IMG/VR virus record: IMGVR_UViG_3300012943_000001
Location: 103,743 to 167,742 of that record
DNA: 64,000 bases
Direction: 5' to 3' (one strand)
Source: a virus
Lineage: Duplodnaviria > Heunggongvirae > Uroviricota > Caudoviricetes
Shown here one piece after another: positions 1 to 35,899 of the stretch; positions within the stretch are counted from its first letter, which is position 1; every line of letters starts with the position of its first letter. The position numbers were made by a program, and so were the translations under genes. Below the pieces are notes generated by a model that ran no database searches, had not been told where the DNA came from, and was given only the letters and a program-made list of their open reading frames with translations.

Positions 1-167
1 ATATGCGAGTTAAGCATGTGCAGGCGAAATGCGTCATAGAAGCTTACGAAAAATATTTAGCTCGTGGAGGATTTTATCTTACTAAATCAGACTGTGAAAA
101 ATTAAATCGTTTAGTCAAAAGAATCAAAAAGTCAAATCAAAGAGGTATTACATGTATCGTTTAGCAA
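1..167 (+). CDS. 3' end of an upstream gene (hypothetical, partial)
   Basis: Open frame 3 from the window edge to TAG at ~165-167; overlaps the next start. Confidence 0.3.
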
Positions 168-1024
168 TTATAGGGTCTCGAAAATTTTCAGATTATTCCT
201 TACTATGTGGTGAGATGGGCAAATTGCCCAAACCCGCACTCATCGTAAGTGGTGGAGCTAAAGGGGCAGATACTTTAGGCAAGAGGTATGCGGACGAGCA
301 TGGAGTACCTACGAAGATTTTCCCGGCTATCTGGCGTCCAGAAGGCGAGGGTGGCCCTATGGACAAAGGTGCGGGCATGAAGAGGAACGTCGATATCGTA
401 GACGAGTCCACCGCCGTTCTTGCGTTCTGGGACGGAGACTCTACAGGAACAATGCACAGTATCAACCTTTGTATTCTGAAGAAGAAGTTTGTCAAGATTG
501 TCTACACGGGTCTTCCAAAGAAGTTGGACGAGAAAGACATTTTCGGATTCTCTGGCAAGCACCGCTGGCTTAGTAACATGTGGCCTGTCGAGATTGAGGT
601 CAATGGTATCAAGTTCGACTCCGTAGAGAACGCGTATCAGGCTTGTAAGTTCGCTGGACAACTTGACCTTATCAAGAAGCTGTCTACAATGCCAGCTCTG
701 AAGACGAAGAGCGAAGCAAAAAAGCACATCGTCACAACGGTAGACTTCCACGGCAAGAAGGTCAAGTTCATGAAGATGCTTCTTAAGAAGAAGTTTGAGA
801 ACCCATGTCTACGTCAGAAGCTCTTGAATACTGGTACAATCCATATTGAAGAGACGAATACTTGGGGCGACGATTTCTGGGGATGCTGCCCGCAGGGTGT
901 GGGCGAAAATAATTTAGGCAAACTTCTTATGGAAATTAGGCAGGAGCTTGCTGATAATGCTACGTACAAATTCGAGCGTGCAGAGGAACGCCAACAAGCA
1001 TTAAAAGACGCACAGCAACCATGA
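152..1024 (+). CDS. SLOG (DUF2493-like) / NADAR (YbiA-like) fusion protein
   Basis: N-term IIGSRKF...IVSGGAKGADTLG (SLOG/DprA-like Rossmann); C-term KHRWLSNMWP...FDSVENAYQACKF (YbiA/NADAR motif). Confidence 0.7.
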   Translation: MYRLAIIGSRKFSDYSLLCGEMGKLPKPALIVSGGAKGADTLGKRYADEHGVPTKIFPAIWRPEGEGGPMDKGAGMKRNVDIVDESTAVLAFWDGDSTGTMHSINLCILKKKFVKIVYTGLPKKLDEKDIFGFSGKHRWLSNMWPVEIEVNGIKFDSVENAYQACKFAGQLDLIKKLSTMPALKTKSEAKKHIVTTVDFHGKKVKFMKMLLKKKFENPCLRQKLLNTGTIHIEETNTWGDDFWGCCPQGVGENNLGKLLMEIRQELADNATYKFERAEERQQALKDAQQP

Positions 1025-7583: not shown

Positions 7584-7589
7584 TTTTCC

Positions 7590-7620
7590 TTGACTTTCAG
7601 TTAAATGTCTGCATTACTCC
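7590..7620 (+). promoter_or_regulatory. conserved CTTGACTTT-type promoter
   Basis: ccTTGACTttcag...; upstream of the HNH gene. Confidence 0.4.
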
Positions 7621-7630
7621 TCGTACAACC

Positions 7631-8323: not shown

Positions 8324-8330
8324 GCATCAA

Positions 8331-8370
8331 GCAAAGAATCTTTAACCGGGTTCTTTGCTTGACTTTTTGT
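8331..8370 (+). terminator. intrinsic terminator candidate (overlaps the next promoter)
   Basis: GCAAAGAA-(loop)-TTCTTTGC then TTGACTTTTTG. Confidence 0.4.
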
Positions 8371-8390
8371 AAACGATGGGTATCATGACT
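8359..8390 (+). promoter_or_regulatory. conserved CTTGACTTT-type promoter upstream of clpB
   Basis: gcTTGACTttttgtaaacgatgggTATCATgac. Confidence 0.45.
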
Positions 8391-8392
8391 AC

Positions 8393-11179: not shown

Positions 11180-12082
11180 ATGGATATCCACGGATATTCC
11201 GCACACATTCTTGTGAATGGTCGGAAGGTAAAAGAGTATCGCCACAAGGGACTTACGTTCATTGAGGCCAAAGACGGAACAGAGTTTACCGTCGAAGTAA
11301 AGAATCATACAGGCCAGAGAATTTTGGCAATTGTATCGGTCGATGGACTAGATATCATCGACGGAAAATCGGCAACGAGCAAGTCTCGCGGTTATATCAT
11401 TAACCCGCATTCAGCAGATACATTCTCTGGATGGCGTCGAAGCAAAGAGCAGGTTGCTTCTTTCAAGTTCACAACTAAAGAGAAGAGCTATGCAACAGAG
11501 AAGGGCGAAGGTCAGAACAACGGTGTCATCGCAATCAGATTGATTGCGGAGAAACTTAAGCCGTTCATTCCACAGTTTGTCGCTCCCGCACCTGAACCGT
11601 ATCAATGGCCGTCTCAACCACGTACCCCATTCCTTCCTCCATCCTTTGGAGACCATGTGATTTCAGGTACATCAGCACCTACATTAGGTGGAGGAACAAC
11701 AACCAGCAACAGACCGCGTACTCGTGTAACGTATAGTGCTAACGGACTATTTGCAGGTCCAGCCACCAGAGGAGTACAACCAGCTCAGGCGGAAACGTTC
11801 AACTACTCTGTACAATCAACTAGTCTTAATGAAGAGTCTGTGGCAGTTGCGGGTGCATCATTTGATATGGGCACGGGTTGGGGCACAGCCAAAGAAGAGA
11901 AGGTTGTCGAAACTGAATTCGAATACGGCGTAGAGCTTGGCACATTAGAGTTCTTCTATGCAAGCCGCGACGCACTTAAAGCAATGGGTATTCCATTGGT
12001 AACGCAAAGAGAAGTCCCAGCCCTTCCACGAGGATTTAAGGACGCACCATACGCACAACCACCAAAAGACTGGAGAGGGTAA
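11180..12082 (+). CDS. hypothetical protein
   Basis: 300-aa ORF after a terminator plus promoter. Confidence 0.55.
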   Translation: MDIHGYSAHILVNGRKVKEYRHKGLTFIEAKDGTEFTVEVKNHTGQRILAIVSVDGLDIIDGKSATSKSRGYIINPHSADTFSGWRRSKEQVASFKFTTKEKSYATEKGEGQNNGVIAIRLIAEKLKPFIPQFVAPAPEPYQWPSQPRTPFLPPSFGDHVISGTSAPTLGGGTTTSNRPRTRVTYSANGLFAGPATRGVQPAQAETFNYSVQSTSLNEESVAVAGASFDMGTGWGTAKEEKVVETEFEYGVELGTLEFFYASRDALKAMGIPLVTQREVPALPRGFKDAPYAQPPKDWRG

Positions 12083-12083
12083 T

Positions 12084-12740
12084 ATGCAAAACAACATTTC
12101 AAAAACAGCAAAGAAAATCGCGAACCTTATCGTTGTAGATAGAAGTAGCTCCATGTCTACTATTAGAGACAAGGTTATCCTTGGCTTTAACGAGCAACTT
12201 CAAAGTATCAAAACGCTGGACGAAACAAATGGAACGAAAAGTTCTGTCAGCATCGTCTACTTTGATTCAGGCGTAGAAGTTCCAGTCACGAAAGCGGACC
12301 CATTAAGTTTGGAACCTCTTACATCGACAAGTTACGTGCCGAATGGTATGACTGCGTTCTACGATGGTCTTGCAATGGGTATTAAGAACTTGGAAGACGC
12401 CCTAGGTTCAGAGCTAGGTGAGACTGAAGTGCTTGTCACGACAATCACGGACGGTCAAGAGAACAGCTCTAGGAAATATACGGGCTCACAGGTCGCGGAC
12501 CTAATCAAACAGTTCCAAACGGACTACGGTTGGACCTTTAATTTCATTGGGGCAAACATTGATACCGAACAATTGGCACAGACTCTAAACGTCTCTGCAT
12601 CAAACGCTATCAACTTTGCAGCCACAGACGAAGGAACAAAAGTTGCATTCGACACTTTAAGAATGGCAAGAACTTCGTACTATACTAAGAAGCTTTCGGG
12701 AGAAGATACCACTCAGGACTTCTACTCGGGATTAAAATAA
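12084..12740 (+). CDS. von Willebrand factor A (vWA) domain protein
   Basis: MIDAS DxSxS motif (VVDRSSSMS). Confidence 0.7.
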   Translation: MQNNISKTAKKIANLIVVDRSSSMSTIRDKVILGFNEQLQSIKTLDETNGTKSSVSIVYFDSGVEVPVTKADPLSLEPLTSTSYVPNGMTAFYDGLAMGIKNLEDALGSELGETEVLVTTITDGQENSSRKYTGSQVADLIKQFQTDYGWTFNFIGANIDTEQLAQTLNVSASNAINFAATDEGTKVAFDTLRMARTSYYTKKLSGEDTTQDFYSGLK

Positions 12741-14460: not shown

Positions 14461-15399
14461 ATGAAAATTAGTTCTATGAGAACCGACACACTGCATGTTG
14501 TCACGGTCATCTCCAATCCAATCAGATTCAAATCTCGTTATGCACTATACGAGAATTTCAAGAGACAAGTAGCTTGTGCGGGAGCGAAACTCTGGACGGT
14601 AGAAATCGCATTTGGCGATAGACCGTTTGAAGTTACTGAGGCGGGAAACCCATATCATCTTCAGCTACGAACCTTTGAGGAGTTGTGGCACAAAGAGAAT
14701 ATGATTAACCTCATGATTCAAAGACTACCTTTGGATTGGGAGTATGTAGCTTGGGTTGACGCAGACATTCTTTTCCACAGACCAGATTGGGTTGAAGAGA
14801 CCGTCCACCAACTTCAACATTATATGGTCATCCAAATGTTTAGTCATGCAATCGACTTGTGTCCAAACTACAAGTGCATGAAGCAGCACAACGGATTTGT
14901 ATGGTCCTATTTTCAAAATGGATTTGAGTCTCCAAAGGGCTACGGTTACAAGAAGTATGGCCTATGGCACCCGGGCTTTGCGTGGGCAGCGAGACGCGAA
15001 GCGATTGACACTCTTGGAGGTTTGATTGATTTTGGTATTTTGGGTGCAGGTGACAGACATATGGCAACGGCCCTTATCGGTTGCGTCGAAGACTCCGTTC
15101 CTCCAAACATTGGTAAGGCTTACTTGAATGAGCTTAAGATTTGGGAGAAGAGAGCGGCCAAGTTGGACAAAGATATTGGCTACATGGAAGGAACCATCAG
15201 TCACTATTGGCACGGTAAGAAGAAAGACAGAAGATATACAGAGCGTTGGAAGATTCTTATCGACAATCAATACGACCCTGACACAGACATCAAGAGAGAT
15301 TGGCAAGGTTTGTGGCAGCTTGCGGGCAATAAGCCAAGGCTTAGAGACCAAATCCGCTCTTACTTCAGAGCGAGAAACGAAGATTCAATCGACGTTTAA
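14461..15399 (+). CDS. putative GT-A fold glycosyltransferase
   Basis: DxD-like WVDADI after a beta-strand-rich N-term; weak. Confidence 0.45.
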   Translation: MKISSMRTDTLHVVTVISNPIRFKSRYALYENFKRQVACAGAKLWTVEIAFGDRPFEVTEAGNPYHLQLRTFEELWHKENMINLMIQRLPLDWEYVAWVDADILFHRPDWVEETVHQLQHYMVIQMFSHAIDLCPNYKCMKQHNGFVWSYFQNGFESPKGYGYKKYGLWHPGFAWAARREAIDTLGGLIDFGILGAGDRHMATALIGCVEDSVPPNIGKAYLNELKIWEKRAAKLDKDIGYMEGTISHYWHGKKKDRRYTERWKILIDNQYDPDTDIKRDWQGLWQLAGNKPRLRDQIRSYFRARNEDSIDV

Positions 15400-15407
15400 C
15401 AGTTTAA

Positions 15408-15436
15408 GACGCATCGTAAATGGTGCGTCTTTTTTC
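15408..15436 (+). terminator. rho-independent terminator
   Basis: AGACGCAtcgtaaatggTGCGTCT + TTTTTT. Confidence 0.65.
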
Positions 15437-15462
15437 TTGACTTTCGCAACAGGATAGGCAGA
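15437..15462 (+). promoter_or_regulatory. conserved CTTGACTTT-type promoter upstream of the PARP gene
   Basis: tcTTGACTttcgcaacaggataggcagaatg. Confidence 0.45.
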
Positions 15463-16866
15463 ATGCACGCTATGCCTATCCCTAGCGAATCCTTCGGAAC
15501 AAGTCCGTTCGACTCTAAGTTCGACGTAGTTAAATCTGTCACGCTTCAAATGACGGACTTTGCCGAGGGAAACAACAAGTTCTATCAGATGGAGCTGCAC
15601 AAGGGCGATAGCGGCAAGTTCCGCATCTTCTCCGCGTACGGACGCACGGGCAAGACTCCAGTGAAGGAAGAGCGTATTCCTCGTGACGAAGCTCACGCTA
15701 TCTCTGAGATGGATAAGATTCAAAAGTCCAAAGAGAAAAAGGGCTATCGCAAAGTAGATATGGTTGCGACGAACCACGGTACGGACGTAGGCAACGCGAA
15801 GATTCTTTCTCAGGATTTCAAGAAGGATAAGGTAGTTGCCCCAAACAAGAATCAAAAGGCCGCGATTCAGCTAGAAGCCTCCATTGTGGGATTGGTAGAA
15901 CGCCTGTACTCTGAGGCTGGACAAAGCTGTAAGAGCCAGCTTAACGGCTCCCTGCAATCGACCGCATCCAATCCTCTAGGTACGCTTTCTCTTACTCAGC
16001 TTCAGGAAGGTAAAGACATCATTCTGAAAGTTAACGCTCTTCTGTCACAGAAGAAAAGCCTTATCGACTCTATTGAGCCAGAGGTCGTCGAACTTTCAAA
16101 CGCGTTCTATAGTGCAATCCCCCAAGAAATCCCATTGCGTCCAAAAGATGCAGACGGGCGTAAGGAATGGATTCGTAGATTTGCTTTGAACAACTCAAAG
16201 ATTCTTGACGAAAAGAATGACTTGCTAGACCTGCTTGGCGACGTTAAAGGCATGATGGCTGGTTTCGCCACAGACGATATCGCCGTCAAGTATAACGAGC
16301 TGAATTGCAAAGTCGAAGTCGCTCCTACCGACAAGTTCCGTTGGGCCAAGGACTATTTGGAGTCTTCCCAGTCCCGCCACCACAATTGGAAGCTTATCGT
16401 TAAGAAAGTTTGGCAGATTGAAAGCAAAGGACAGAGCGGCTATCGTAGTACGGTAGAGAAGATTGGAAATGTCCAGCAACTTTTCCACGGCTCCCGTGCA
16501 TCAAATATCATGGGTATCTGCAAAAAAGGCTTGCTATTACGTCCGCCCGGTGCATATGTTACCGGAAGCATGTTCGGCAACGGTCTTTACTTTGCCGACC
16601 AATCCACAAAATCTTCTCAGTACGCCACCGCACGTTTCGGAGGAAGCTCCTCAAGCTATGGTAACTCGTATTTCATGTTCATTGCGGATGTCGCATTGGG
16701 CAAGATTATGAAGTATCAAGACTCCCAAAGCTATCTACAGAAAGCTCCTCACGGCTACGACTCTGTACAGGGCGAAAAGGGCCGCAGTCTAGTACACAAC
16801 GAATTTATCGTCTACGATATCAAACAAAACGAACTCAAATACTTAATCGAATTCGAACAAAGGTAA
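15463..16866 (+). CDS. poly(ADP-ribose) polymerase-like protein (WGR + PARP catalytic domain)
   Basis: H-Y-E triad: FHGSRASN, GNGLYFADQS, NEFIVYD; WGR-like FYQMELH...FSAYGRTGKT at the N-term. Confidence 0.8.
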   Translation: MHAMPIPSESFGTSPFDSKFDVVKSVTLQMTDFAEGNNKFYQMELHKGDSGKFRIFSAYGRTGKTPVKEERIPRDEAHAISEMDKIQKSKEKKGYRKVDMVATNHGTDVGNAKILSQDFKKDKVVAPNKNQKAAIQLEASIVGLVERLYSEAGQSCKSQLNGSLQSTASNPLGTLSLTQLQEGKDIILKVNALLSQKKSLIDSIEPEVVELSNAFYSAIPQEIPLRPKDADGRKEWIRRFALNNSKILDEKNDLLDLLGDVKGMMAGFATDDIAVKYNELNCKVEVAPTDKFRWAKDYLESSQSRHHNWKLIVKKVWQIESKGQSGYRSTVEKIGNVQQLFHGSRASNIMGICKKGLLLRPPGAYVTGSMFGNGLYFADQSTKSSQYATARFGGSSSSYGNSYFMFIADVALGKIMKYQDSQSYLQKAPHGYDSVQGEKGRSLVHNEFIVYDIKQNELKYLIEFEQR

Positions 16867-16869
16867 TAT

Positions 16870-17775
16870 ATGAAAATCGCACAACTCAAAGTCGGAGATA
16901 GAGTCTTTCTTGACGCGTCTCTTGGTAGGAAATGGGACGAAGGTCAGGACAATCCATACTCTGACGGCCAATACGGAAATCTGGATGGCGAAGTTACCGC
17001 TATCAAATCTACTTGGGTAGATGTCAAATGGGATAACGGTCAAATCAATAGCTATGGAGATAATGACCTTAACTTGGCAGCGAACAGGCCGCAGGCTCAC
17101 GCCCCAGCTTCCGCCGCTCCAAGCGTCACGGTCACTCCTACTGGAACGACCACTGCACCTGTAGCTTCCAAGCCAGCAGAGGCAAAGATTATCATTACGG
17201 CAGCGGCTTTGGCCCTCCCTGATTTGGAGACCGCTGTAGCAAGAGTCGTTTCCAAGTTCACGAACGATTCGTTGACATTCTCCGCCTATGATGTCACGTC
17301 TCGCCTTCGTCAGGAAATCAATTCGAAGCAAATCGAAATCTCCAGCATTCCAGTGTCCGATGTAGACGGCGTACAAACCCGTCGCATTGTTCACGCTGAC
17401 GTTCGCCCAATCGTCACTCGCCTTGTCGCGGGTATCCCAGCATACACAAAGCGTCTTAGTGCGAATGGTGACTACATTGAGTACGCAACAATCGTTCCTA
17501 CTCCAATCCGTACTGCGAAAGCTCCTACTGTTACGGTGACGCCAACCGCAACGACGACCTCTGGCGTCTTGGGCTCCAAGACATCCGCGTCTCCTCGTGC
17601 TCACAAAATCACGCAGGAATACGTTACGGCAAAGCGTACCACCACGCTTAAGGCAATCCAGAGCCGTATCAAAAACGACGCTCCAACGGTTCGAGAAATC
17701 GAAACGATTGCAGTGGGGCTCGGGTTCAAGGTCACACCAAAGACCCCGTACTACGCAACGGAAGTTTCAGTCTAA
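16870..17775 (+). CDS. hypothetical protein with Thr/Pro-rich internal repeats
   Basis: Two PxVTVTPTxTTT repeats ~140 aa apart. Confidence 0.5.
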   Translation: MKIAQLKVGDRVFLDASLGRKWDEGQDNPYSDGQYGNLDGEVTAIKSTWVDVKWDNGQINSYGDNDLNLAANRPQAHAPASAAPSVTVTPTGTTTAPVASKPAEAKIIITAAALALPDLETAVARVVSKFTNDSLTFSAYDVTSRLRQEINSKQIEISSIPVSDVDGVQTRRIVHADVRPIVTRLVAGIPAYTKRLSANGDYIEYATIVPTPIRTAKAPTVTVTPTATTTSGVLGSKTSASPRAHKITQEYVTAKRTTTLKAIQSRIKNDAPTVREIETIAVGLGFKVTPKTPYYATEVSV

Positions 17776-17783
17776 TCTACGAA

Positions 17784-17810
17784 CCCTCGAAGAAATTCGG
17801 GGGTTTTTTC
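17784..17810 (+). terminator. rho-independent terminator
   Basis: CCCTCGAAgaaaTTCGGGGG + TTTTTT. Confidence 0.65.
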
Positions 17811-17842
17811 TTGACTTCTAACCCAAAGTCTGGACACTGTAC
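17811..17842 (+). promoter_or_regulatory. conserved CTTGACTT-type promoter upstream of the macro gene
   Basis: tcTTGACTtctaacccaaagtctggacactgTACGTC. Confidence 0.4.
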
Positions 17843-17845
17843 GTC

Positions 17846-18337
17846 ATGATTACAGAACGAATCGGTAACCTTCTGACGGACCCGCAAGTGAACGTCATCG
17901 CTCACCAGTGTAATTGTTTCCATACAATGGGAGGAGGTATCGCTCGCATCATCGCTCAGATGTATCCTGAAGCCGTCCGTGCAGATAATGAAACCCCTCA
18001 CGGTGACGAAAGTAAGATGGGTACGTTCTCCGTAGCGACTGTACAGAGAGGCGATAAAAAAATCCGCATCGTCAATATGTATGGTCAATACAAGACGAGC
18101 AATACGGAGCGTATGACCCGATACGACGCTCTACACGACGCTCTTTTCGAGCTTGAGGCAACGATTCGTGCCAGCGTTAACGTAGACCAATACATTGTAG
18201 GAGTTCCCTACGGATTGGGCTCGGCTCTTGGCGGAGGTTCGTGGACCATTGTGCGGGCAATCCTCGAACGCATCTTTGGTAAATCGCCCGTCCAACTTCA
18301 TATTATTCGACTTCCTGATGTTCCAGACCTCGAATAA
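17846..18337 (+). CDS. macro domain protein (ADP-ribose binding / hydrolase)
   Basis: NVIAHQCNCFHTMGGGIARII matches the macro VNAAN...GGGV core. Confidence 0.75.
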   Translation: MITERIGNLLTDPQVNVIAHQCNCFHTMGGGIARIIAQMYPEAVRADNETPHGDESKMGTFSVATVQRGDKKIRIVNMYGQYKTSNTERMTRYDALHDALFELEATIRASVNVDQYIVGVPYGLGSALGGGSWTIVRAILERIFGKSPVQLHIIRLPDVPDLE

Positions 18338-18339
18338 GC

Positions 18340-18372
18340 TTGACTTTCCTAACACGTTAAAATACCGTCCAC
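18340..18372 (+). promoter_or_regulatory. conserved CTTGACTTTCC-type promoter upstream of pncA
   Basis: gcTTGACTttcctaacacgttaaaataccg. Confidence 0.45.
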
Positions 18373-18379
18373 TCGCAAC

Positions 18380-19180
18380 ATGAATATCCAACTCCTCATT
18401 ATCGACCCGCAGATTGACTTCTGCGACCCCAAAGGTGCCTTATCTGTCAAAGGTGCCGACCAAGACATGGTTCGCCTCGCCGCGATGATTAAGAAGCATC
18501 ACGCTTCCATCGACGACATCCGCGTGACTCTCGACAGTCACCAGAAAATCCACATCGCCCACCCAATCTGTTGGGTTGACGCACAAGGTAAACATCCTGC
18601 CCCTTTCACCCTCATTACTGAGGCGGACGTTGCGGGTAGCAGCCCGAAGTGGAAGGCTTACAATCCAGCTTGGCAGAAACGTCAAGTTGATTACGTCAAG
18701 GCTCTCAGCACGGGTGGCCGCTACGTTCTCGTTATCTGGCCTGAGCATTGCCTTATCGGCACGCCCGGTCACGCGGTATACCCAACCCTCGGCGAAGCCC
18801 TTGCGGTATGGCAGGACGAAAACTTCGGCATGATTGACTTCGTGACCAAAGGTTCGAATCCATTCACCGAACACTATAGCGTCGTCAAAGCGGACGTTCC
18901 CGATATCGGAGACCCGACTACAAATATCAACACCAGCTTCATCAAGCGTCTTGAAGATGCGGACGTGATTTTGGTTGCGGGTGAAGCTCTCTCGCACTGT
19001 GTCGCTAATTCGGTTCGCGATATCGCACTCGAATTCGGCGACGAACATATCAAGAAATTCGTTCTTCTTGAAGACGCAACAAGTCCAGTCACCGGCTTTG
19101 AAAAGATGGCCGACGACTTCGTGACAGAGATGAAGGCGAAGGGTATGCAAATCGCCAAGACCACGACCTTCTTCAAGTAA
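18380..19180 (+). CDS. pncA: isochorismatase-family amidase, nicotinamidase (PncA)-like
   Basis: IIDPQIDFC (Asp), SHCVANS (Cys) triad elements; 266 aa. Confidence 0.65.
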   Translation: MNIQLLIIDPQIDFCDPKGALSVKGADQDMVRLAAMIKKHHASIDDIRVTLDSHQKIHIAHPICWVDAQGKHPAPFTLITEADVAGSSPKWKAYNPAWQKRQVDYVKALSTGGRYVLVIWPEHCLIGTPGHAVYPTLGEALAVWQDENFGMIDFVTKGSNPFTEHYSVVKADVPDIGDPTTNINTSFIKRLEDADVILVAGEALSHCVANSVRDIALEFGDEHIKKFVLLEDATSPVTGFEKMADDFVTEMKAKGMQIAKTTTFFK

Positions 19181-19213: not shown

Positions 19214-19951
19214 ATGCCTAAACTAATGGGTAAGAATGATTCCGTGGTACTTAGCACGGTATCGAATTTCGGGTTTTCAGGTACACGTCCTGAAGCCCTC
19301 GGTGCAAGCGAGTACACAATTGTGTCCATCGCTGTAGACATTTCGGGCTCTGTAGCAAGTTACGAAGCAAGTCTCGTAGAAGCCTACAAGAACATTATCG
19401 GCTCTTGCCGCAAGAATCCTCGTGCCGAAAATCTTCTGGTGCGTGGAGTGACCTTCAACGAAAATCTGAGCGAGTTGCACGGCTTTGTAGGTCTCGACAC
19501 TATCAAAGAAGACCAACTCAGTCTTCACGCTCACGGCGGCACAGCCCTCTTCGACTCTGCCTTGGAAGGTGTTGAAGCTCTTGGCAAGTACGGCAAGACG
19601 CTCTTCGATATGGACTATTTGGTCAATGGAGTTCTCTTCATTGTGACCGATGGCGACGACACAAGCTCCCGCCTCGCGTCCCCAGACAAGATTAAGGCCG
19701 CTTTGGAGAAGGTTCGCAAGACGGAAGTCCTCGAATCTATCAAAGTGATTCTTATCGGTGTGGGCGACCAGAACTCGGTTCAGCAATACCTCGACACTCT
19801 CCATAAGAACGCAGGTTTCGACCAGTTCGCGTGGATTGGTGGTGCAGATGCCAAAGCCCTCGCCAAGATGGCTGCATTCGTCAGCAACAGCATTAGCTCC
19901 AGTTCGCAGGCGTTGGGTACAGGTGGCCCATCCCAGAATCTTACAGTCTAA
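19214..19951 (+). CDS. vWA domain protein
   Basis: AVDISGSVAS MIDAS motif. Confidence 0.6.
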   Translation: MPKLMGKNDSVVLSTVSNFGFSGTRPEALGASEYTIVSIAVDISGSVASYEASLVEAYKNIIGSCRKNPRAENLLVRGVTFNENLSELHGFVGLDTIKEDQLSLHAHGGTALFDSALEGVEALGKYGKTLFDMDYLVNGVLFIVTDGDDTSSRLASPDKIKAALEKVRKTEVLESIKVILIGVGDQNSVQQYLDTLHKNAGFDQFAWIGGADAKALAKMAAFVSNSISSSSQALGTGGPSQNLTV

Positions 19952-20298
19952 TGTCTGAGGTATCCAAAGAGCTGGCTCAAAAGATAGCCGACGAAATCAG
20001 GGAGAAGCTTATCGAAAAGTACATCACTGTACTTAACGAGGCTTACGATGCGGACCCTGCGGCTATCCACGCCTTGCTCCTCAACAGGATTCCCTGTAAC
20101 GAAAAGCTCGCAAATCATCCTACGATTCAGGTCACTGAAGAAACCGTTCCAAAGCAAACGTACTATTCGGTTGGCGTACTAGGTCTACTAAATGGACTTA
20201 TTGCGTCAGCTACAGGTACGTGTGTGGCGGCGAAGTTCTCCGAGCCTGATAAGGAAGGGCGAGCGACGCTCCTAGGGTTTCAAAAATACAACGGATAA
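19951..20298 (+). CDS. hypothetical protein
   Basis: ATGTCTGA overlap with the upstream gene; followed by an intrinsic terminator. Confidence 0.5.
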   Translation: MSEVSKELAQKIADEIREKLIEKYITVLNEAYDADPAAIHALLLNRIPCNEKLANHPTIQVTEETVPKQTYYSVGVLGLLNGLIASATGTCVAAKFSEPDKEGRATLLGFQKYNG

Positions 20299-20303
20299 CC
20301 AAC

Positions 20304-20326
20304 GGGGAGGGTAACCTCCCCTTTTT
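20304..20326 (+). terminator. rho-independent terminator
   Basis: GGGGAGGgtaaCCTCCCC + TTTTT. Confidence 0.7.
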
Positions 20327-20331
20327 AATTT

Positions 20332-20634
20332 ATGAGTTCGCTATTTATAACGAAATCAAGGTACGACCATATCACTAACTTGTTCACTTCGCTATCTATG
20401 GAGAAGTATAAAGCGGGCGTACCTATGGGTAAAGAATTCGTCTTTGAACTTAAGAAGGATAAGTTCATGAGCCTACAAGAACACTTTGGAGAAAACGCAA
20501 AATCCTTTTTTGATTCAGCGATACAATCTGATGGATTCTACCTCGTAGATGACATAGGTGTTCTGTCGGGTTGGGCAGGTCTCCGCCATATCAGAAAAGG
20601 TAAAGTGACGAACTACATAACTTATAGGTCATAA
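20332..20634 (+). CDS. hypothetical protein
   Basis: 100-aa ORF. Confidence 0.45.
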   Translation: MSSLFITKSRYDHITNLFTSLSMEKYKAGVPMGKEFVFELKKDKFMSLQEHFGENAKSFFDSAIQSDGFYLVDDIGVLSGWAGLRHIRKGKVTNYITYRS

Positions 20635-20635
20635 T

Positions 20636-21139
20636 ATGGAATGCTATAGAATCGAGAACGCCACCGCTATTGGCGGACAAAGATTGGTGGGTGTAGATAT
20701 GAGCAGTTACCCAATCAAAAAGGGAAACTGTTTTGACGTAAAGGTGGGTGAGGAGTACGTAGGTATAGTTAATTTTGGAGCGGAGAATTTAAGAGAGCTT
20801 GTTAAGAGAGGTCTGACGTGGCCTATCAAAATCAAACGTCTCGCTTCTAACGTAGGTTTGATTGTGGACGAGCGTATCCCAGACCACTGGTATCAAGATA
20901 GATACTGTGAGGTATGCACTCCTGAAGCGTTCCTCAATCACTTCCAACTTATGCGGCGTGAGCGTGCGGTGGCACGTGGAGACCGTGAAATTCTACCGGG
21001 CGGATACGTAAGGTCTAGAATAGGTCCGAATCCCGTTTTTGACTACGTTGGAGAGAAAAAGATTGACTTTAAGAACTGGCATTTCAAGATAGAAACCGAA
21101 GTCGTGCAACAGTTCGGCGACGACGGCAAACCACTATGA
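20636..21139 (+). CDS. hypothetical protein
   Basis: 167-aa ORF. Confidence 0.5.
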   Translation: MECYRIENATAIGGQRLVGVDMSSYPIKKGNCFDVKVGEEYVGIVNFGAENLRELVKRGLTWPIKIKRLASNVGLIVDERIPDHWYQDRYCEVCTPEAFLNHFQLMRRERAVARGDREILPGGYVRSRIGPNPVFDYVGEKKIDFKNWHFKIETEVVQQFGDDGKPL

Positions 21140-21327
21140 CGATAGGCAAATACAAAGTCTACCCATTCGAGAAGGTCGAAACGATTGACGGCGTTTGGGG
21201 AGACTGGAAATGCGAGATAGAAGACACTGCGGGCAACCTCAGCATCGGCTATATCGAAGGCGACGGTGGCCTGTTCGAAGAATCTACACTCAAAGACGAA
21301 AACGGAAATCTTATTCCTCATGATTAA
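21136..21327 (+). CDS. hypothetical small protein
   Basis: 63 aa, ATGA overlap with the upstream gene. Confidence 0.4.
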   Translation: MTIGKYKVYPFEKVETIDGVWGDWKCEIEDTAGNLSIGYIEGDGGLFEESTLKDENGNLIPHD

Positions 21328-22174
21328 CACAGACTCATACTATGAAATTGGGGCCGGGCATGTCTTCAATCAAGACTATGCTGATAGCGGTTTCTTTACT
21401 ACTCCCGAGAATGGGAAGAAGTATTACTATGCCGTGGTATCTGATGGATGCTCTGGGTCGAAGGATAGTGACATCGGGGCTCGCTGGATGGCGAAGAATT
21501 TCCCTATCGTTGCACGTGCGGCTCTTATGGGTGAGACAAGCGTCTCTCTACGTGAGAACATCGAGCATGTTCTTGTAGAGAAGATGAAGTCTGAAGAGCG
21601 GCTTTGGTCGATTGCTGGCGAAGCGTACGACGCAACGCTCGTGGCGGTCATCTATGACGAGACCCTAGACGTACTTCATTCCTTCGCTTGGGGCGACGGA
21701 CATATCTTACTCGTAGCCAAAGAGGGCGTATCATTTCTTACTTCAATCAAGTATCGCTCTAACGCTCCATACTATCTATCGTATAGAGTTAGTGTAGATA
21801 GAGAGATGCGGTATGAAGAGTTTTTTGGAAACAATTATGCCGACGTTACCTACAATCTTCTTACGGACGAAAATATTGTCCGTGTTGTAGAGAAGGATGA
21901 ATTCAAAAAGAAGTTTGTGTATGACGAAGTTCCGGGGGCGTCAAAGCTTATCAAGCACGCTCTAGTTATGACCGATGGCGTAGAGACGTATCATAGAAAG
22001 TTCGATGTAGATACCACTATGTCTATGCGTAACGTCTTCAGTCAATTTTCACAATACAAAAACACTCACGGCGAGTTCGTCAAACGTAGAATGCAAAAGG
22101 TCAAGTCCTTCGCAGAGAAGGAAGAGTGGCAGCACTTTGACGACATCAGCGTGGCAACAATTAGTCTGGTATGA
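21320..22174 (+). CDS. PP2C/SpoIIE-like Ser/Thr phosphatase
   Basis: YYAVVSDGCSGSKDSD and LVMTDGVETY resemble PP2C metal-binding motifs; start taken at the ATG overlapping the upstream stop (ATGATTAA). Confidence 0.55.
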   Translation: MINTDSYYEIGAGHVFNQDYADSGFFTTPENGKKYYYAVVSDGCSGSKDSDIGARWMAKNFPIVARAALMGETSVSLRENIEHVLVEKMKSEERLWSIAGEAYDATLVAVIYDETLDVLHSFAWGDGHILLVAKEGVSFLTSIKYRSNAPYYLSYRVSVDREMRYEEFFGNNYADVTYNLLTDENIVRVVEKDEFKKKFVYDEVPGASKLIKHALVMTDGVETYHRKFDVDTTMSMRNVFSQFSQYKNTHGEFVKRRMQKVKSFAEKEEWQHFDDISVATISLV

Positions 22175-23049
22175 GCGACCACAAACCAATTCATTTTCAC
22201 GTCTACGACCCATCTACCTCTTTCTTCAAGTCGAGCAAGAACGATGCGGCCAAAAGATTCGTAGTGCTCTGTAACAATTCAGAGAACTGTGAGCTTCATA
22301 AGAAAGGCACGTGCATACTCAGAAGCTTTTGGGGAGGCGGATGTCCGTATGGATATTGTTCTAATGAAGAAGGCTATACAAGAAGAGCCAGAGGGTTTGG
22401 GACATGGATTCGCAAGCAGGGAGAGATGTATAAAGGCGTCCCGTCTATTTCATCGCCTCCGAAGAAGCTTGCGGTGGTGGGAGACTACATCTATATCCCG
22501 TACGCTCATGCAAACATGAACAAGGAAGTTCCTTTCCTTGGTCATGGTGGGTTTATGTCCTCTGGTAGCAACTTCATTAAGAAAGAGGATTGGACCATAC
22601 ATAATATTGCGAAGATAGTCGCGTTCCATCCACAAGCTTTGATGGGAGGCTATATCGACTCATATTGGAAAGAGGAAGTCCCCCTTTTCCTTTCTCACCT
22701 TGAAGAGGTAATGCCTGACATGTATAAAGAGTTGCTGGCGACATATCCGCAATTCATAAAAAGCTTCAATCTCCTCGCTCCCAAAAACTACGTAGGCCGC
22801 AAAGCTAAAGTAAAAACTCTTTCGCCATGTACGTTCCGTACTAAAGGTTCTCAAGACGGGGACTATAAAGTTACGTGGATTTGGGACGGGAAAGTATTGA
22901 AGACGGCTTCGGATTCGGTCTACCAGTCCATATGGGGAAGTGTCAATAAATATGAGAGTTTGGAAATGACGCTCATACCTAATGACGACTCCGTTATCGA
23001 AATCACAGACAACGCTCAGGTAAATGCTGGCACCGTATTCGTTGACTGA
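22171..23049 (+). CDS. Cys-rich hypothetical protein
   Basis: CNNSENCELHKKGTCILRSFWGGGCPYGYC cluster. Confidence 0.5.
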   Translation: MSDHKPIHFHVYDPSTSFFKSSKNDAAKRFVVLCNNSENCELHKKGTCILRSFWGGGCPYGYCSNEEGYTRRARGFGTWIRKQGEMYKGVPSISSPPKKLAVVGDYIYIPYAHANMNKEVPFLGHGGFMSSGSNFIKKEDWTIHNIAKIVAFHPQALMGGYIDSYWKEEVPLFLSHLEEVMPDMYKELLATYPQFIKSFNLLAPKNYVGRKAKVKTLSPCTFRTKGSQDGDYKVTWIWDGKVLKTASDSVYQSIWGSVNKYESLEMTLIPNDDSVIEITDNAQVNAGTVFVD

Positions 23050-25570: not shown

Positions 25571-26794
25571 ATGATTATCACTAGTCTCCTCGACCTCGAC
25601 CTGTATAAGCTGACGGTAGGCCAAGTCATCTTCAAAAACTTCCGCTTCGTCCGGGCGAAGTACCGCATGACGGTTCGCAATGGCAAGCAGATTAACTTCT
25701 GGCATGGAGACATCGCTCGCCAGATGGAAGTTGAGATTAAAGCTCTTGAAAACTTGAGTCTACAACCTGACGAGGCAGACTATCTTCGCAAGTTGGGTTT
25801 GGGATTCGAAGAGTCGTATCTACGTTTTCTTTCGAACAAGCCTATGGAAGGTTGCTTCGTTAGATACGTTCATCAAGAAAGCATAAAGTTTACAGACAAC
25901 GACTACGTTCCTGAAGTACATGGAGAATGGTGCAGAGCTATGCTTTACGAAATCTTCTGTCTTAGTATCGCGAATGAAATTTTCGCTAGGCAGTATTGCA
26001 GGTTCAATAATGTCAAATACGATTGGCTTACAGAGGCGGGAGAGGTTCGCCTTGCAAAGAAGATTGCATATCTTCAAGAACATAAAGCGGGAAACTACTG
26101 TAAACATCCGATGTCGATTTCGGAGTTCGGTACGCGTCGCCGGTTGAGTCATGCTTGGCAAGCTCATGTCGTCAAGGAACTCTATAGCAGCGGAGTAATC
26201 AATGCCACGAGTAACGTTTACTTCGGAAAGCTATTCGACATTCCTGTTCGCGGCACTTTCGGCCACGAGTTCACAATGGGTATGCAAGCCTTAACCCGCG
26301 TGCAAGACAGTCAGAAAGAAGCGTTGTGGCTTTGGCATAGAGAGTGGAATGGAAAGCTTTCACTTGCTTTAGACGATACGCTTGGCGATGCGAAGTTCGT
26401 CCAAGATTTTGATAAGGACTTAGCTATGGCTTATTCGGGCCTTCGTCACGATTCGGGCGAGCCAGAGGCGTGGACGGAAGACCGCATCACTATGTATCAT
26501 AGGCTCGACGTGAATCCAGAACAGAAGACTCTTTTGTACTCAGACGGGCTGGACGTTCATAAAGCGGTAGCACTACGCAACCTTGTGGGCTTACGAGCCA
26601 TTCCGAAGTTCGGTATCGGTACGAATTTTACCAACGATACGTTCTCGCCTGTCCCGCAGGTTGTCATGAAGATTGTTCATTGCAACGGTCAACATGTTGC
26701 AAAGCTTTCGAACAATCCCGCCAAGGCTTGCTGCGATGACCCTGAATATCTCCGCTACATCAAGCACATTTCGGGAGTGAAAGATTCAGCTTGA
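25571..26794 (+). CDS. pncB: nicotinate phosphoribosyltransferase
   Basis: N-term SLLDLDLYKLTVGQV typical of NAPRTase; 407 aa. Confidence 0.8.
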   Translation: MIITSLLDLDLYKLTVGQVIFKNFRFVRAKYRMTVRNGKQINFWHGDIARQMEVEIKALENLSLQPDEADYLRKLGLGFEESYLRFLSNKPMEGCFVRYVHQESIKFTDNDYVPEVHGEWCRAMLYEIFCLSIANEIFARQYCRFNNVKYDWLTEAGEVRLAKKIAYLQEHKAGNYCKHPMSISEFGTRRRLSHAWQAHVVKELYSSGVINATSNVYFGKLFDIPVRGTFGHEFTMGMQALTRVQDSQKEALWLWHREWNGKLSLALDDTLGDAKFVQDFDKDLAMAYSGLRHDSGEPEAWTEDRITMYHRLDVNPEQKTLLYSDGLDVHKAVALRNLVGLRAIPKFGIGTNFTNDTFSPVPQVVMKIVHCNGQHVAKLSNNPAKACCDDPEYLRYIKHISGVKDSA

Positions 26795-26826: not shown

Positions 26827-28545
26827 ATGAAAGTTCTCCTCGCCCAGCTTAATCCCGTCGTAGGTGACCTCGAAGGCAACTTTGCCAAGGTCCGCGAAGT
26901 CATTCTGAAGCACGCGGGCAGTCATGATTTGATTGTCTTTCCCGAGTTGACCCTCACTGGCTACCCGCCAAACGACCTGCTTCTCCGTAAGGGATTCGTG
27001 GACGAACAACTCGTCTACGTAGACAAGGTTCGCAAGCTTTCCTACCGTACGCCCGAATGCACCATCCTCATTGGTGCCGTGACGAACAATGAAGAGGTGG
27101 GTAAGCCTCTTCGCAACTCCGCCCTTGGGTTTAACAACGGACATCGTATCGTCACCTATCACAAGCAACTCCTCCCTACCTATAATATCTTCGACGAGAA
27201 TCGTTATTTTGAACCGGGCAATGGAGATGGTTGCGTCTTCCATATCAATACGAAGAAACACGGCAAGGTTGTCTTGGGTCTTCTTATTTGCGAAGACTGT
27301 TGGAATGATGAAGCTGTGTGCGACGCACCACTCTATCCAACCAATCCTGTTCAGAAGGTATTCGAGAACGAGTTCGACCTTCCTAAAGTACAGGCCGTCA
27401 TCACTCTCAACGCTTCCCCTTCGGACGTAGGCAAGCATTCGTATCGCTACACTATGTATTCGACTTTATCGGAGAAGTGTGGCGTGCCGTTCGTCTATGT
27501 TAATTCGGTAGGTGGGCAAGATTCGCTCGTGTTCGATGGACACAGTTTTGTTGTGGATGGCAAGTCGATTTGGTACGCCAAAGGATTTGTTGAAGACCTA
27601 TGGAGTGCGGAGATTCTGGTGCCACAGCCAAACATGCCCGCCCTTCAAGTCCCGCAGTATCATCGCGAGATGCTTATCATTGAGCATTTGAAGCTCGGCC
27701 TCAAAGACTATGTTACCAAGAACGGTTTTCAGAAGGTTGTTGTAGGTAGCTCGGGCGGCATTGATAGTGCCGTCGTACTCATGATTGCGAAGGAAGCCCT
27801 TGGTGCAGAGAACGTCTTTGCGGTTACTATGCCGTCGAAGTTTTCGAGTGAAGGTAGTTGGAAAGACTCGGAAGTCCTCTGTGATAACCTTGGCGTCAAG
27901 CTATACAACCGTCCAATCATCGACGAAGTTCTGGCTTCGATTGAAGCATTTAAGAAGTCGTTTGGTGTAGAGCCAAGCCGCATGACCATCGAGAATATGC
28001 AGGCCCGCATCCGTGGCCGCATCCTCATGGAGTTCAGCAATCATTTTGGTGCCCTCGTTCTATCGACTGGTAACAAATCGGAAATGAGTGTGGGTTACTG
28101 CACTATCTATGGTGACATGTGCGGTGGACTCAGCCTCATTGCAGACCTCTATAAGATGGAAGTCTATGCGGTCGCCAAGTTCCATAACGAGAATCATAGC
28201 GAGCCAATCATTCCTAAAGACATCGTGGACAAAGCCCCTTCGGCTGAACTCTGGGAAGGTCAGAAAGACACTGACAGCCTGCCTCCATATCCAGTCCTCG
28301 ACGCAGTTCTAAAGCTTTATTTGGAGCGTGACCTCATGTCGTACGAAGAGATTCAAGAGGCGAAGCTCCTTATCGAGAACATGAGCCTGAAGGATATCAA
28401 ACGAATCCTCAAGATGACGGACAACGCAGAGTTCAAACGTCGTCAGGCCGCACCTGTCATCCGTATTCATAAGCGTGCGTTCGGATTCGGTCGTAATCTA
28501 CCAATCACCCAACGCTACAAGGTCAGCTACGAAAACGTACTGTGA
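26827..28545 (+). CDS. nadE: glutamine-dependent NAD+ synthetase (nitrilase + NadE domains)
   Basis: MKVLLAQLNP nitrilase start; SGGIDSAVV PP-loop; 572 aa. Confidence 0.85.
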   Translation: MKVLLAQLNPVVGDLEGNFAKVREVILKHAGSHDLIVFPELTLTGYPPNDLLLRKGFVDEQLVYVDKVRKLSYRTPECTILIGAVTNNEEVGKPLRNSALGFNNGHRIVTYHKQLLPTYNIFDENRYFEPGNGDGCVFHINTKKHGKVVLGLLICEDCWNDEAVCDAPLYPTNPVQKVFENEFDLPKVQAVITLNASPSDVGKHSYRYTMYSTLSEKCGVPFVYVNSVGGQDSLVFDGHSFVVDGKSIWYAKGFVEDLWSAEILVPQPNMPALQVPQYHREMLIIEHLKLGLKDYVTKNGFQKVVVGSSGGIDSAVVLMIAKEALGAENVFAVTMPSKFSSEGSWKDSEVLCDNLGVKLYNRPIIDEVLASIEAFKKSFGVEPSRMTIENMQARIRGRILMEFSNHFGALVLSTGNKSEMSVGYCTIYGDMCGGLSLIADLYKMEVYAVAKFHNENHSEPIIPKDIVDKAPSAELWEGQKDTDSLPPYPVLDAVLKLYLERDLMSYEEIQEAKLLIENMSLKDIKRILKMTDNAEFKRRQAAPVIRIHKRAFGFGRNLPITQRYKVSYENVL

Positions 28546-28948: not shown

Positions 28949-29554
28949 ATGAGACGCAAAGCCATTTTGGGTGGAGCCTTTGACCCAATTCATAACGACC
29001 ATATCCGCATGGGCTACGGCATCATGTACATGGGACTGGTTAATGAAGTTCACTACACTCCTTGTTACAAACACAAGTTTGGCAAGGATATGGCAACCGT
29101 AGACCATCGTCTAGCTATGGGGTTCGAAGGTCTTCAGGAAGCAAGAAAGAAGTACGCGATGGACTTCCGACTTTCGAGAGAAGAGTTCCGAATTCAGCAC
29201 GAAGGCAGCACGTACGAATATCTAACTCAACATATTTATCCAAAGTATAAAGAAGCTCAAGACGAATACTACTTCGTCATTGGCTCTGACAACGCGGTCC
29301 AAATCGAAAAGTTTCATTGTTGGCAGGAGTTGATTAAAATTATCAACTTCATCGTTGTACGTAGAGACGGCTTTATGGCGTCGGGCAACGAATGGTTTAT
29401 GCAGAAGCCTCACCGCTTTGTTGACCTTGGGCTTGCAGGTCTTTCCTCAACTTTGATTCGCGATACGATAAAGAGTCAGGGTCATATCGGCATCAAAGAT
29501 ATGGTGCCCGAATCTGTCTACGAGTATATTACCAAGCACAATCTATACAAATGA
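28949..29554 (+). CDS. nadD: nicotinate/nicotinamide mononucleotide adenylyltransferase
   Basis: GGAFDPIHNDH (H/TxGH) motif; SDNAVQI. Confidence 0.75.
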   Translation: MRRKAILGGAFDPIHNDHIRMGYGIMYMGLVNEVHYTPCYKHKFGKDMATVDHRLAMGFEGLQEARKKYAMDFRLSREEFRIQHEGSTYEYLTQHIYPKYKEAQDEYYFVIGSDNAVQIEKFHCWQELIKIINFIVVRRDGFMASGNEWFMQKPHRFVDLGLAGLSSTLIRDTIKSQGHIGIKDMVPESVYEYITKHNLYK

Positions 29555-30081
29555 GCAAGAAAAATTACCCAATGCCTTCTATCACTGGTGACGTTATTGT
29601 ATATGACGTGTTTTACCAGAAGATTCTTCTTATCAAACGTAAGAAAGACCCGTTCGCCAATACGTGGGCTATCGTAGGCGGATTCTTCAATGCAGAGACG
29701 CATGACGAAGGCGTACAGGACGCATCGGTTGAGGCGGCAGCTATTCGTGAGCTGAAGGAAGAGACCAATATCGACCTCGCACAAATCACGCCTTTAGGCG
29801 GATGCACGTTCCGCTTTCTCACGCTCCAAGACGCTCCCGGTCGTGACCCTCGTGGCCGCGTCGTAACTGCGGTCTATACACTCCGCATTACGAGTGGACA
29901 GGTCATGGACAAGATTCGCGTGGAAGCCAAGCCGCTTGACGACGCTGAAGATATGAAGTGGTTTTCCATCTTTGAGCTTGTTGAAGAAGACAAGATTCCT
30001 TTGGCGTTTGACCATAGGGATTCGATTCGCCAACTCTTCTATCAAGAATTCGGAGGCAGACCGTGGCTGACGAAAAAGTAA
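29551..30081 (+). CDS. Nudix hydrolase (probable ADP-ribose pyrophosphatase)
   Basis: Nudix box GGFFNAETHDEGVQDASVEAAAIRELKEETNI; 4-bp overlap with nadD. Confidence 0.75.
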   Translation: MSKKNYPMPSITGDVIVYDVFYQKILLIKRKKDPFANTWAIVGGFFNAETHDEGVQDASVEAAAIRELKEETNIDLAQITPLGGCTFRFLTLQDAPGRDPRGRVVTAVYTLRITSGQVMDKIRVEAKPLDDAEDMKWFSIFELVEEDKIPLAFDHRDSIRQLFYQEFGGRPWLTKK

Positions 30082-32680: not shown

Positions 32681-32702
32681 GGAAAGTCTAGTTAAGTTTA
32701 CA

Positions 32703-32730
32703 AGCCGCTCAGAAATGGGCGGCTTTTTGC
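32703..32730 (+). terminator. rho-independent terminator after the SPFH gene
   Basis: AGCCGCtcagaaatggGCGGCT + TTTTG. Confidence 0.6.
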
Positions 32731-33426: not shown

Positions 33427-33427
33427 A

Positions 33428-33460: not shown

Positions 33461-33476
33461 CAGCAATCTCAAAACT

Positions 33477-35895: not shown

Positions 35896-35899
35896 TTCA

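Follow-up and report, generated by a model that had tools for sequence, protein, structure and literature searches.

A PARP1/2-type enzyme and its conserved winged-helix partner beside macro-domain and NAD+ recycling genes in an uncultured jumbo phage

The window studied here is a 64,000-nucleotide stretch of a Caudoviricetes genome (IMG/VR record IMGVR_UViG_3300012943_000001, positions 103,743 to 167,742). A preliminary description, made from the letters alone, had flagged at 15463-19180 a PARP-type ADP-ribosyltransferase, a repeat protein, a macro domain protein and a nicotinamidase. The PARP, macro and nicotinamidase observation was confirmed, and the island proved to be larger than had been flagged. 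Four consecutive open reading frames (ORFs) on the + strand occupy these sites; the antisense ORFs 15385-15855, 16843-17604 and 18440-19150 were treated as shadows of the + strand genes. The genes, their domains and the flanking hairpins are as follows (aa, amino acids; AF2, AlphaFold2; ART, ADP-ribosyltransferase; HD, helical domain; WH, winged helix).

15406..15431, + strand: intrinsic-terminator-like hairpin with an 11-bp stem and a T-tract, the upstream boundary of the PARP unit
15463..16866, + strand: PARP, 467 aa (Pfam, phmmer, conservation, AF2 model)
15538-15756, + strand, aa ~26-98: WGR domain of the PARP (Pfam)
15871-16248, + strand, aa 137-262: helical regulatory (HD/PARP_reg) domain of the PARP (Pfam)
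16336-16857, + strand, aa 292-465: ART catalytic domain of the PARP (triad H342/Y376/E447)
16870..17775, + strand: PARP-associated winged-helix protein, 301 aa (profile family, AF2 model, linkage)
the same gene, + strand, aa 1-72: N-terminal SH3-like module (phrog_11307, phrog_9469)
the same gene, + strand, aa ~119-207: WH1, the universally conserved part (AF2 model)
the same gene, + strand, aa ~242-300: WH2 (AF2 model)
17781..17806, + strand: terminator-like hairpin with an 11-bp stem, then TTTTCTTGACT, dividing the PARP and partner genes from the macro/PncA unit
17846..18337, + strand: predicted macro-domain ADP-ribosyl hydrolase, 163 aa, ALC1-like class, SCO6735-like subclass (profiles, PDB matches)
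18380..19180, + strand: nicotinamidase, PncA-like long form, 266 aa (aligned catalytic and metal-binding residues)

An identical PARP sequence is present on a 205,462-bp metagenome contig of the Joint Genome Institute (JGI). A megablast search of the island against GenBank phages returned zero matches and no near-identical DNA, so the source is not a sequenced isolate. The wider window has the look of a large phage, with DNA polymerase III alpha, a ClpB-like ATPase, spermidine synthase, RNA ligases and a kinase accompanied by PP2C. The window is a piece of an uncultured jumbo phage of ~205 kb; that this phage runs an NAD+/ADP-ribose economy of its own is our best explanation, held with about even confidence.

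The first ORF encodes a full PARP1/2-type enzyme with a break-sensor-type WGR domain, and the enzyme is apparently catalytically competent. Pfam recognizes the WGR domain (5.9e-14), a PARP_reg domain (1.4e-9) and the PARP catalytic domain (7.5e-35), each above its gathering score. The WGR segment before the catalytic domain had been described correctly, whereas the helical regulatory domain, the third Pfam domain, had been overlooked. When the protein was compared with PDB sequences by phmmer, the WGR-CAT part of human PARP1 aligned over residues 22-437 (E = 1.6e-36). The motifs FHGSR, GLYFAD and NEFIVYD fell in register with the H-Y-E triad of PARP1 (H862, Y896 and E988). Among 121 relatives, the triad residues H342, Y376 and E447 are conserved in 120, 121 and 121 sequences, respectively, bearing out the full triad read from the DNA; K383, S384 and Y387 are likewise conserved. 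The WGR motif is Y59-G60-R61, with G60 and R61 invariant. An AF2 model built from 30 family sequences (pLDDT 77.8) places helices at 139-279, the HD region. Its top PDB match is PARP1 WGR-CAT on a DNA double-strand break (7s6h, E = 5e-29, ~500 columns), DNA-bound PARP2 is also among its best matches, and Foldseek matches it to PARP1 and PARP2 over the full length.

The start of the gene is ambiguous. The ATG at 15463 has AGGA 9 nt upstream, and the alternative ATG at 15472 corresponds to residue M4, a Met in at least 90% of the aligned sequences. The JGI call begins at M30 (438 aa), which cuts into the first WGR strand, and this truncating call is wrong. The enzyme had been described as rare in phages. 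That holds for sequenced isolates, with relatives in 16 of the 50,697 GenBank phage records used for our counts, but not for metagenomes, where at least 365 homologues were found, many of them on contigs of 200-250 kb. Scanning 185,579 species genomes with the PARP alignment gave just two matches, both in Bacillales at 34% identity, and no clue to the host.

The second ORF begins 3 nt after the PARP stop codon. It had been taken for a repeat protein, which we reject, because no tandem repeat exists at the DNA level (16800-17850) and the protein consists of an SH3-like module and two winged-helix domains instead. The module is followed by a Thr/Pro linker, WH1, a second Thr/Pro linker and WH2; the two Thr/Pro-rich linkers, set between the folded domains, resemble each other. 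Residues T143 and R147 are invariant, and at least 90% of the family members share F137, S138, N151, H175, Y251, K261, Q264, S265 and K268. In the AF2 model of residues 112-301 (pLDDT 89.2), WH2 shows the classic winged-helix order and WH1 is a winged helix with an inserted beta-hairpin; the model had no match at E <= 0.001 among the viral structures of BFVD. Word-indexed homology search with the full 301-aa protein retrieved only the protein itself, and with the central domain nothing, owing to the low-complexity linkers and low identity. Exhaustive HMMER search with residues 112-301 recovered 163 representative clusters, many of them stand-alone proteins of ~185 aa. Pfam on 60 family members gave solely isolated weak matches to SH3-like and winged-helix families; the SH3-like module of relatives weakly matches MIB_HERC2, DUF3553 and DUF4314, and DUF7695 is the sole fusion domain detected in longer members.

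We then compared 13 loci of the same PARP clade (the window, L004-L012 and L015-L017; PARP identity 49-77%). The partner-family profile finds an ORF near the PARP gene in all 13, lying 0-2 genes downstream in 12 of them and ~6 kb downstream in L017. Two loci were found by way of the partner family and turned out to carry a WGR-PARP_reg-PARP gene. Since the partner is present in every clade locus, we regard it as the real conserved companion of the PARP, an inseparable gene of this phage PARP clade.

The PARP-partner pair is exactly bracketed by two strong terminator-like hairpins, each followed by TTTTCTTGAC. This motif has two exact copies in the 64 kb, both at the hairpins of the pair; the copy directly 3' of the upstream hairpin is accompanied by a promoter-like site at 15437-15464. 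A terminator and a promoter-like element between the partner and macro genes recur in L005 and L006. The motif TTT(T/C/G)CTTGAC, whose T-tract leads into a TTGAC resembling a -35 element, was found in + strand intergenic gaps at 7585, 8354, 10939, 15432, 17806 and 32726, and a hairpin precedes both exact copies. With one mismatch allowed, it was counted 15 times against 8.8 expected, modestly over chance. It is probably the terminator/promoter junction of this phage.

The macro domain protein lies two genes downstream of the PARP, as had been proposed. Of the Pfam profile searches suggested as a check, those for the PARP catalytic and WGR domains passed the threshold, whereas that for Macro stayed below it (0.041). 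The assignment is carried by phrog_335 (4e-37), the DarG profiles of NCBIfam (2.5e-9) and PADLOC (2.8e-10), and the PDB macrodomains SCO6735 (5.3e-5) and BT1257 (2.8e-4), the best PDB hits, whose fold it shares. The position of the catalytic Lys of DarG (K80) and TARG1 (K84) is a Gln, so that unlike DarG, TARG1 and AdfM the window protein is without this Lys; the comparisons drawn from sequence records are those with AdfM and SCO6735. N23 and Q81 (in MYGQY) correspond to SCO6735 N27 and Q85 and are conserved in the L005, L006 and L002 homologues. In vitro, SCO6735 strips ADP-ribose from thymidine in DNA and from auto-modified PARP1, and its activity requires Gln85 and Asn27 instead of the DarG/TARG1 catalytic Lys (PMC9411070). 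Identity to AdfM of PhiKZ, a Lys-type phage macro protein that counters DarT2 (PMC13309987), is 21%. The window protein is neither fused to nor beside a DarT toxin; a PARP is nearby instead. A macro gene lies within 2 kb of the PARP gene in 6 of the 13 clade loci. Two gene orders occur: in the window, L005 and L006 the macro gene is downstream of the PARP, and in L007, L015 and L016 it is upstream.

The fourth ORF was confirmed as a PncA beside the macro gene. Its catalytic residues D9/K157/C207 and metal ligands D52/H54/H123 are intact and align with those of yeast Pnc1, M. tuberculosis PncA and the P. horikoshii enzyme, all of solved structure. The profile scores are below curated cut-offs (Pfam Isochorismatase 0.004, 17.6 bits versus 27; PRK11609 35 bits versus a cut-off of 174), with NCBIfam PncA at 1.2e-8. 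Compared with the yeast and M. tuberculosis enzymes, ~30-50 extra residues stand between the DxH and WPxHC motifs. ORFs with 36-56% identity occur in the huge uncultured phages LR756511, LR745208 and LR756500, and the LR756511 and LR756500 genomes encode PncB and a PARP-like catalytic domain elsewhere. In L005 (13284-14168), a JGI minus-strand call overlies the PncA homologue; it is an error, as the + strand ORF there shares 77% identity with PncA of the window.

The earlier suggestion that the nicotinamide released by the PARP is recycled gained more support than had been claimed, as the predicted PncB, NadD, NadE and Nudix genes follow 6-11 kb downstream. These genes and two further ones are listed below.

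25571..26794, + strand: PncB, nicotinate phosphoribosyltransferase (TIGR01514, 324 bits against a cut-off of 269.55)
26827..28545, + strand: NadE, glutamine-dependent NAD+ synthetase, CN_hydrolase and NAD_synthase (NF010588, 572 bits against 479)
28949..29554, + strand: NadD-like nicotinate-mononucleotide (NaMN) adenylyltransferase (motifs GGAFDPIHNDH and SSTLIR)
29551..30081, + strand: Nudix hydrolase, like the ADP-ribose pyrophosphatase domain of NadM-Nudix and NtrR
19214..19951, + strand: VWA-like protein, 245 aa, role unassigned, after a 33-nt gap behind PncA
152..1024, + strand: YAcAr(SLOG)-NADAR fusion, peripheral to the island, a candidate second ADP-ribose processor

The NadD-like protein carries the HxxH and SSTxxR motifs, and its top NCBIfam matches are all NaMN adenylyltransferase models, the best at 2.3e-31, under the equivalog cut-offs. 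Judged from the predicted proteins, PncB, NadD and NadE, the Preiss-Handler set, are all present and form a full NAD+ cycle with PncA and Nudix, so nicotinamide released by the PARP could return to NAD+ wholly by phage enzymes. The Preiss-Handler genes are found within 13 kb in the window; in L005 and L006, where the block from PARP to NadE is conserved whole, they are within 10 kb.

PARP relatives with 58-60% identity adjoin a different, non-orthologous NAD+ salvage route, that of NAMPT and NMNAT-Nudix. L015 carries NAMPT, NMNAT-Nudix, a PRPP-synthetase-like gene, cREC and NADAR beside the PARP; in L007 the PARP neighbours are NAMPT, cREC and a stand-alone Nudix. L016 has a PRPP-synthetase-like gene, NADAR and Nudix, with no NAMPT in the L016 DNA examined. 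That two different salvage routes occur next to one enzyme argues that PARP and NAD+ supply are functionally linked. In L009, L011, L012, L017 and L003 (Cellulophaga phi4:1), an ATP-dependent DNA ligase is encoded no more than a few kb from the PARP, and these loci often also hold Thg1, RtcB, RNA ligases or a CCA-adding enzyme. In L008 and L010, the PARP is next to rIIA/rIIB-type genes. The pairing of PARP and DNA ligase in distant lineages is reminiscent of eukaryotic single-strand-break repair.

The domains, catalytic residues and their conservation, the linkage of the genes and the limits of the transcription units, all shown above, point to an ADP-ribosyltransferase activated by nucleic-acid ends that works with a winged-helix partner, a reading to which we give about an even chance; its DNA dependence, poly- or mono-ADP-ribosylating activity, targets and direct relationship to the partner or the macro protein we infer. 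The core would be a two-gene unit of a PARP1/2-type enzyme (WGR, autoinhibitory HD and H-Y-E domain) and a double-winged-helix protein. The WGR domain may recognize DNA ends or nicks arising from phage replication, packaging or host nuclease attack, and DNA binding would relieve the autoinhibition by the helical domain. With NAD+ as substrate, the PARP would then ADP-ribosylate one or more of three targets, namely itself, the winged-helix partner and nucleic-acid ends, marking or protecting breaks for repair. The phage recycling genes would pay the NAD+ cost, returning nicotinamide to NAD+ via PncA, PncB, NadD and NadE, while the SCO6735-like macro hydrolase would free ADP-ribose from targets and the Nudix enzyme would break it down. 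There is precedent in bacterial WGR-HD-ART PARPs that are active in vitro, the Herpetosiphon enzyme requiring DNA (PMC8120803), and the ATP-dependent DNA ligase, Thg1, RtcB and RNA ligases adjoining the PARPs support a repair context. More tentatively, and with doubts outweighing confidence, the winged-helix protein could be an obligate cofactor or the principal substrate of the PARP, a viral counterpart of histones or HPF1. The pair would then be a minimal, self-contained DNA-break signalling or end-protection system for the phage genome, in which the partner or the DNA ends might be ADP-ribosylated, fuelled by the phage NAD+ cycle and reset by the macro hydrolase.

Several observations weigh against this end-activated enzyme and its supply line. 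The Trp of the WGR motif is replaced by Tyr in 112 of the 121 PARP family members. The loop before the catalytic Glu has 10 residues in 114 of the 121, ~28 fewer than the ~38 of PARP1, which makes the polymer-forming ability of the enzyme uncertain; tankyrase and PARP4, to whose length it is nearer, align unbroken over this region, so the loop was not used to decide between poly- and mono-ADP-ribosylation. Biochemical or expression evidence for any phage PARP was not found in the literature, and the phrases 'phage PARP' and 'phage-encoded PARP' were absent from the literature searched. PARG/DUF2263 was not found among the ~54 window ORFs scanned with Pfam (those of at least 150 aa except 50478-50933 and 55840-56391), and the Pfam annotation of the 12 related loci shows none either. 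In seven of the 13 clade loci, the 10 kb around the PARP hold neither a macro gene nor one for NAD+ salvage, and such genes are therefore not obligatory for PARP function. Furthermore, the partner profile found no match in three GenBank phage PARP loci (XacN1-type, Klebsiella and Cellulophaga, with PARPs at most 30% identical), even at E <= 50 with filters off, nor in two bacterial PARP loci, whose PARPs are 34% identical.

Other points bear on the macro protein and favour a different, clearly less probable explanation, in which the island serves counter-defence. The macro protein and the NADAR protein (152-1024) would undo DarT-type marks placed by the host on phage DNA, and the set PncA-PncB-NadD-NadE-Nudix would, by analogy with NARP1-3, rebuild NAD+ lost to Sir2- or TIR-like NADases. 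The PARP would be nearby merely through clustering, the macro protein would not be its eraser, and the end-activated enzyme could exist alongside. The closest relatives of the macro protein, SCO6735 (PMC9411070), DarG and AdfM (PMC13309987), remove ADP-ribose from thymidine in DarT-modified DNA, and N23 and Q81 match residues essential to SCO6735. The family occurs in 2,809 of the 50,697 GenBank phages (5.5%), nearly all without a PARP; macro and PncA belong to a transcription unit apart from the PARP, as the terminator/promoter-like boundary predicts. Rebuilding NAD+ is an established anti-defence strategy of phages, and a NADAR gene is present in the same genome as well as in L015 and L016; the YAcAr(SLOG)-NADAR protein may have a second ADP-ribose-processing or an anti-DarT1 function. 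Against this stands the macro gene's position, which stays within 2 kb of the PARP across the clade despite the reshuffled gene order. SCO6735-type enzymes also de-modify PARP1, so that both roles are compatible, and a phage with an NAD+-consuming PARP has its own reason to keep salvage genes. The writer/eraser reading is supported in part: the adjacency that had suggested it is real, while a role of the macro protein as dedicated eraser of the PARP's marks is not established.

Two further explanations concern what the PARP modifies. It is unlikely that the enzyme serves host take-over, poly- or mono-ADP-ribosylating RNA polymerase, nucleoid or translation proteins like T4 Alt/ModA/ModB while the partner targets host DNA. 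ADP-ribosylation of host machinery is the classic use of phage ADP-ribosyltransferases and was proposed for jumbo-phage PARPs by Iyer et al. 2021 (PMC7824862), and rIIA/rIIB-type genes adjoin the PARP in two loci; yet the retained WGR and autoinhibitory HD suggest activation dependent on nucleic-acid ends, not a constitutive toxin-like activity, and what recurs next to the PARP is DNA ligase, RNA-repair and NAD+ genes rather than genes of transcription take-over. Less probable still, with only a slim chance, is an accessory role in RNA repair, in which the PARP and macro protein would act on RNA ends or by-products of the ADP-ribose-1''-phosphate (Appr-1''-p) type during repair of tRNAs cut by host anticodon nucleases, together with the phage RNA ligases, kinase/phosphatase and large tRNA set. 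The macro protein falls in phrog_335, and GenBank labels the proteins of this family 'phosphatase' or Poa1p-like Appr-1''-p processing protein; Thg1, RtcB, RNA ligases, CCA-adding enzyme and SpoU methylase recur at the PARP in L007, L009, L011, L012, L015, L016 and L017, and the window holds an RNA-repair cluster and 42 tRNA genes. However, Appr>p in RNA repair is made by Tpt1/KptA, not by a WGR-PARP, and Tpt1 was not seen among the window ORFs scanned; the WGR domains characterised so far sense DNA breaks, and the RNA-repair genes of the window are 25-30 kb distant from the PARP.

The phage enzyme shares the WGR, helical regulatory and ART architecture, the H-Y-E triad and the donor-site K/S/Y with PARP1/2/3 and with bacterial PARPs (Herpetosiphon aurantiacus, Clostridioides difficile CD160). 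It differs in being phage-encoded and in having neither zinc fingers nor BRCT, and its identity to PARP1 is just 21-27%. Bacterial PARP systems have a PARG eraser (PMC8120803), whereas the phage PARP pairs with a winged-helix protein and an SCO6735-like macro protein. Annotated WGR-PARPs of phages, namely Xanthomonas XacN1 and Xoo-sp13, Stenotrophomonas CM1 and RAS14, Klebsiella 05F01 and FBKp34, and Cellulophaga phi4:1, are just 24-30% identical to the window PARP. No annotated macro or nicotinamidase gene adjoins the PARP in these loci; in Klebsiella 05F01, a gene 5 kb upstream of the PARP that is annotated 'putative phosphatase' encodes a macro homologue.

Like NARP1-3, the window encodes an enzyme set that would rebuild NAD+ from breakdown products. 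NARP1 consists of Adps and Namat, NARP2 of Nampt and NMNAT, and NARP3 of PnuC and NadR, and none of these pairs was found within the window, whose phosphoribosyltransferase is of the NAPRTase (PncB) type (TIGR01514). NARP3 was rejected as a match for the salvage genes because it is PnuC plus NadR. The predicted route of the window differs in that PncA deamidates nicotinamide and PncB, NadD and NadE follow (Preiss-Handler); L007 and L015 carry NARP2-like genes.

Jumbo-phage PARPs and NAD+ synthesis are already known in silico. A 2021 paper noted PARPs in 'a few jumbo phages' and treats phage Macro, NADAR and Nudix domains unconnected to PARP (PMC7824862), and a 2024 survey in Microbiome, which mentions pncA, reported 'NAD-jumbo phages' that combine Preiss-Handler or salvage clusters with NAD+ consumers including PARP (PMC11662467). 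The partner protein is mentioned in neither paper, and macro and Nudix are unmentioned in the latter. New are the invariant winged-helix partner, the Gln-type macro protein in place of PARG, and the comparative evidence joining PARP to NAD+ salvage.

PARP signalling is usually viewed as a eukaryotic DNA-damage system. For the few bacterial PARPs, no physiological role is known. The phage clade offers a tractable minimal system, with a compact PARP of ~465 aa and one invariant partner gene, to which some lineages add an adjacent candidate eraser and a complete predicted NAD+ supply line. It makes addressable what a PARP senses and modifies outside eukaryotes, whether ADP-ribosylation protects or repairs viral genomes under nuclease attack, and how a virus affords an NAD+-consuming enzyme while hosts deplete NAD+ as defence. 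The locus also reveals a Preiss-Handler route distinct from the experimentally defined NARP1-3. With the phage uncultured and all statements on function inferred, the practical value of the locus is limited at present.

Between PncA and PncB (19214-25166) lie genes for the VWA protein, a PP2C phosphatase, a 292-aa protein of unknown function and a 705-aa kinase-like protein. L005 and L006 both keep the genes for VWA, PP2C and the kinase, the VWA-like protein with 73-75% identity, and the 292-aa gene is kept in L005 alone. A TerY-P triad (VWA, PP2C and Ser/Thr kinase) was considered for this region; the trio architecture is present, with no PADLOC TerY-P match and with Pfam Pkinase and VWA scores below gathering scores. 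A second VWA paralogue and a DUF7918 protein are encoded at 11180-12740, and a PfkB-family sugar kinase gene (1021-1836) directly follows the YAcAr(SLOG)-NADAR fusion. Upstream, at 6096-10879, spermidine synthase, an HNH endonuclease and a ClpB-like double-AAA+ ATPase are syntenic in L005 and L006, where AdoMet decarboxylase accompanies spermidine synthase.

Downstream, the window carries an SPFH/Band7 protein, LemA and a TPM phosphatase (31343-34771). In L007 (390-1349), L008 (2359-2703) and L010 (365-3160), MVP_shoulder or Band7 proteins are encoded less than 10 kb from the PARP, which may be an echo of the eukaryotic vault with PARP4 or a coincidence. The RNA-repair-like cluster at 43042-48889 comprises an Rnl1-like ligase, an HD protein, a metallophosphatase, an AAA_33 kinase and an Rnl2-like ligase, and upstream of it, at 35422-37525, are a PTH2 peptidyl-tRNA hydrolase and two R2K ATP-grasp proteins. 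The 42 tRNA genes, all on the + strand at 52658-63857, cover nearly all amino acids with several duplicates, and include an odd call at 56717-56791 with a two-base anticodon.

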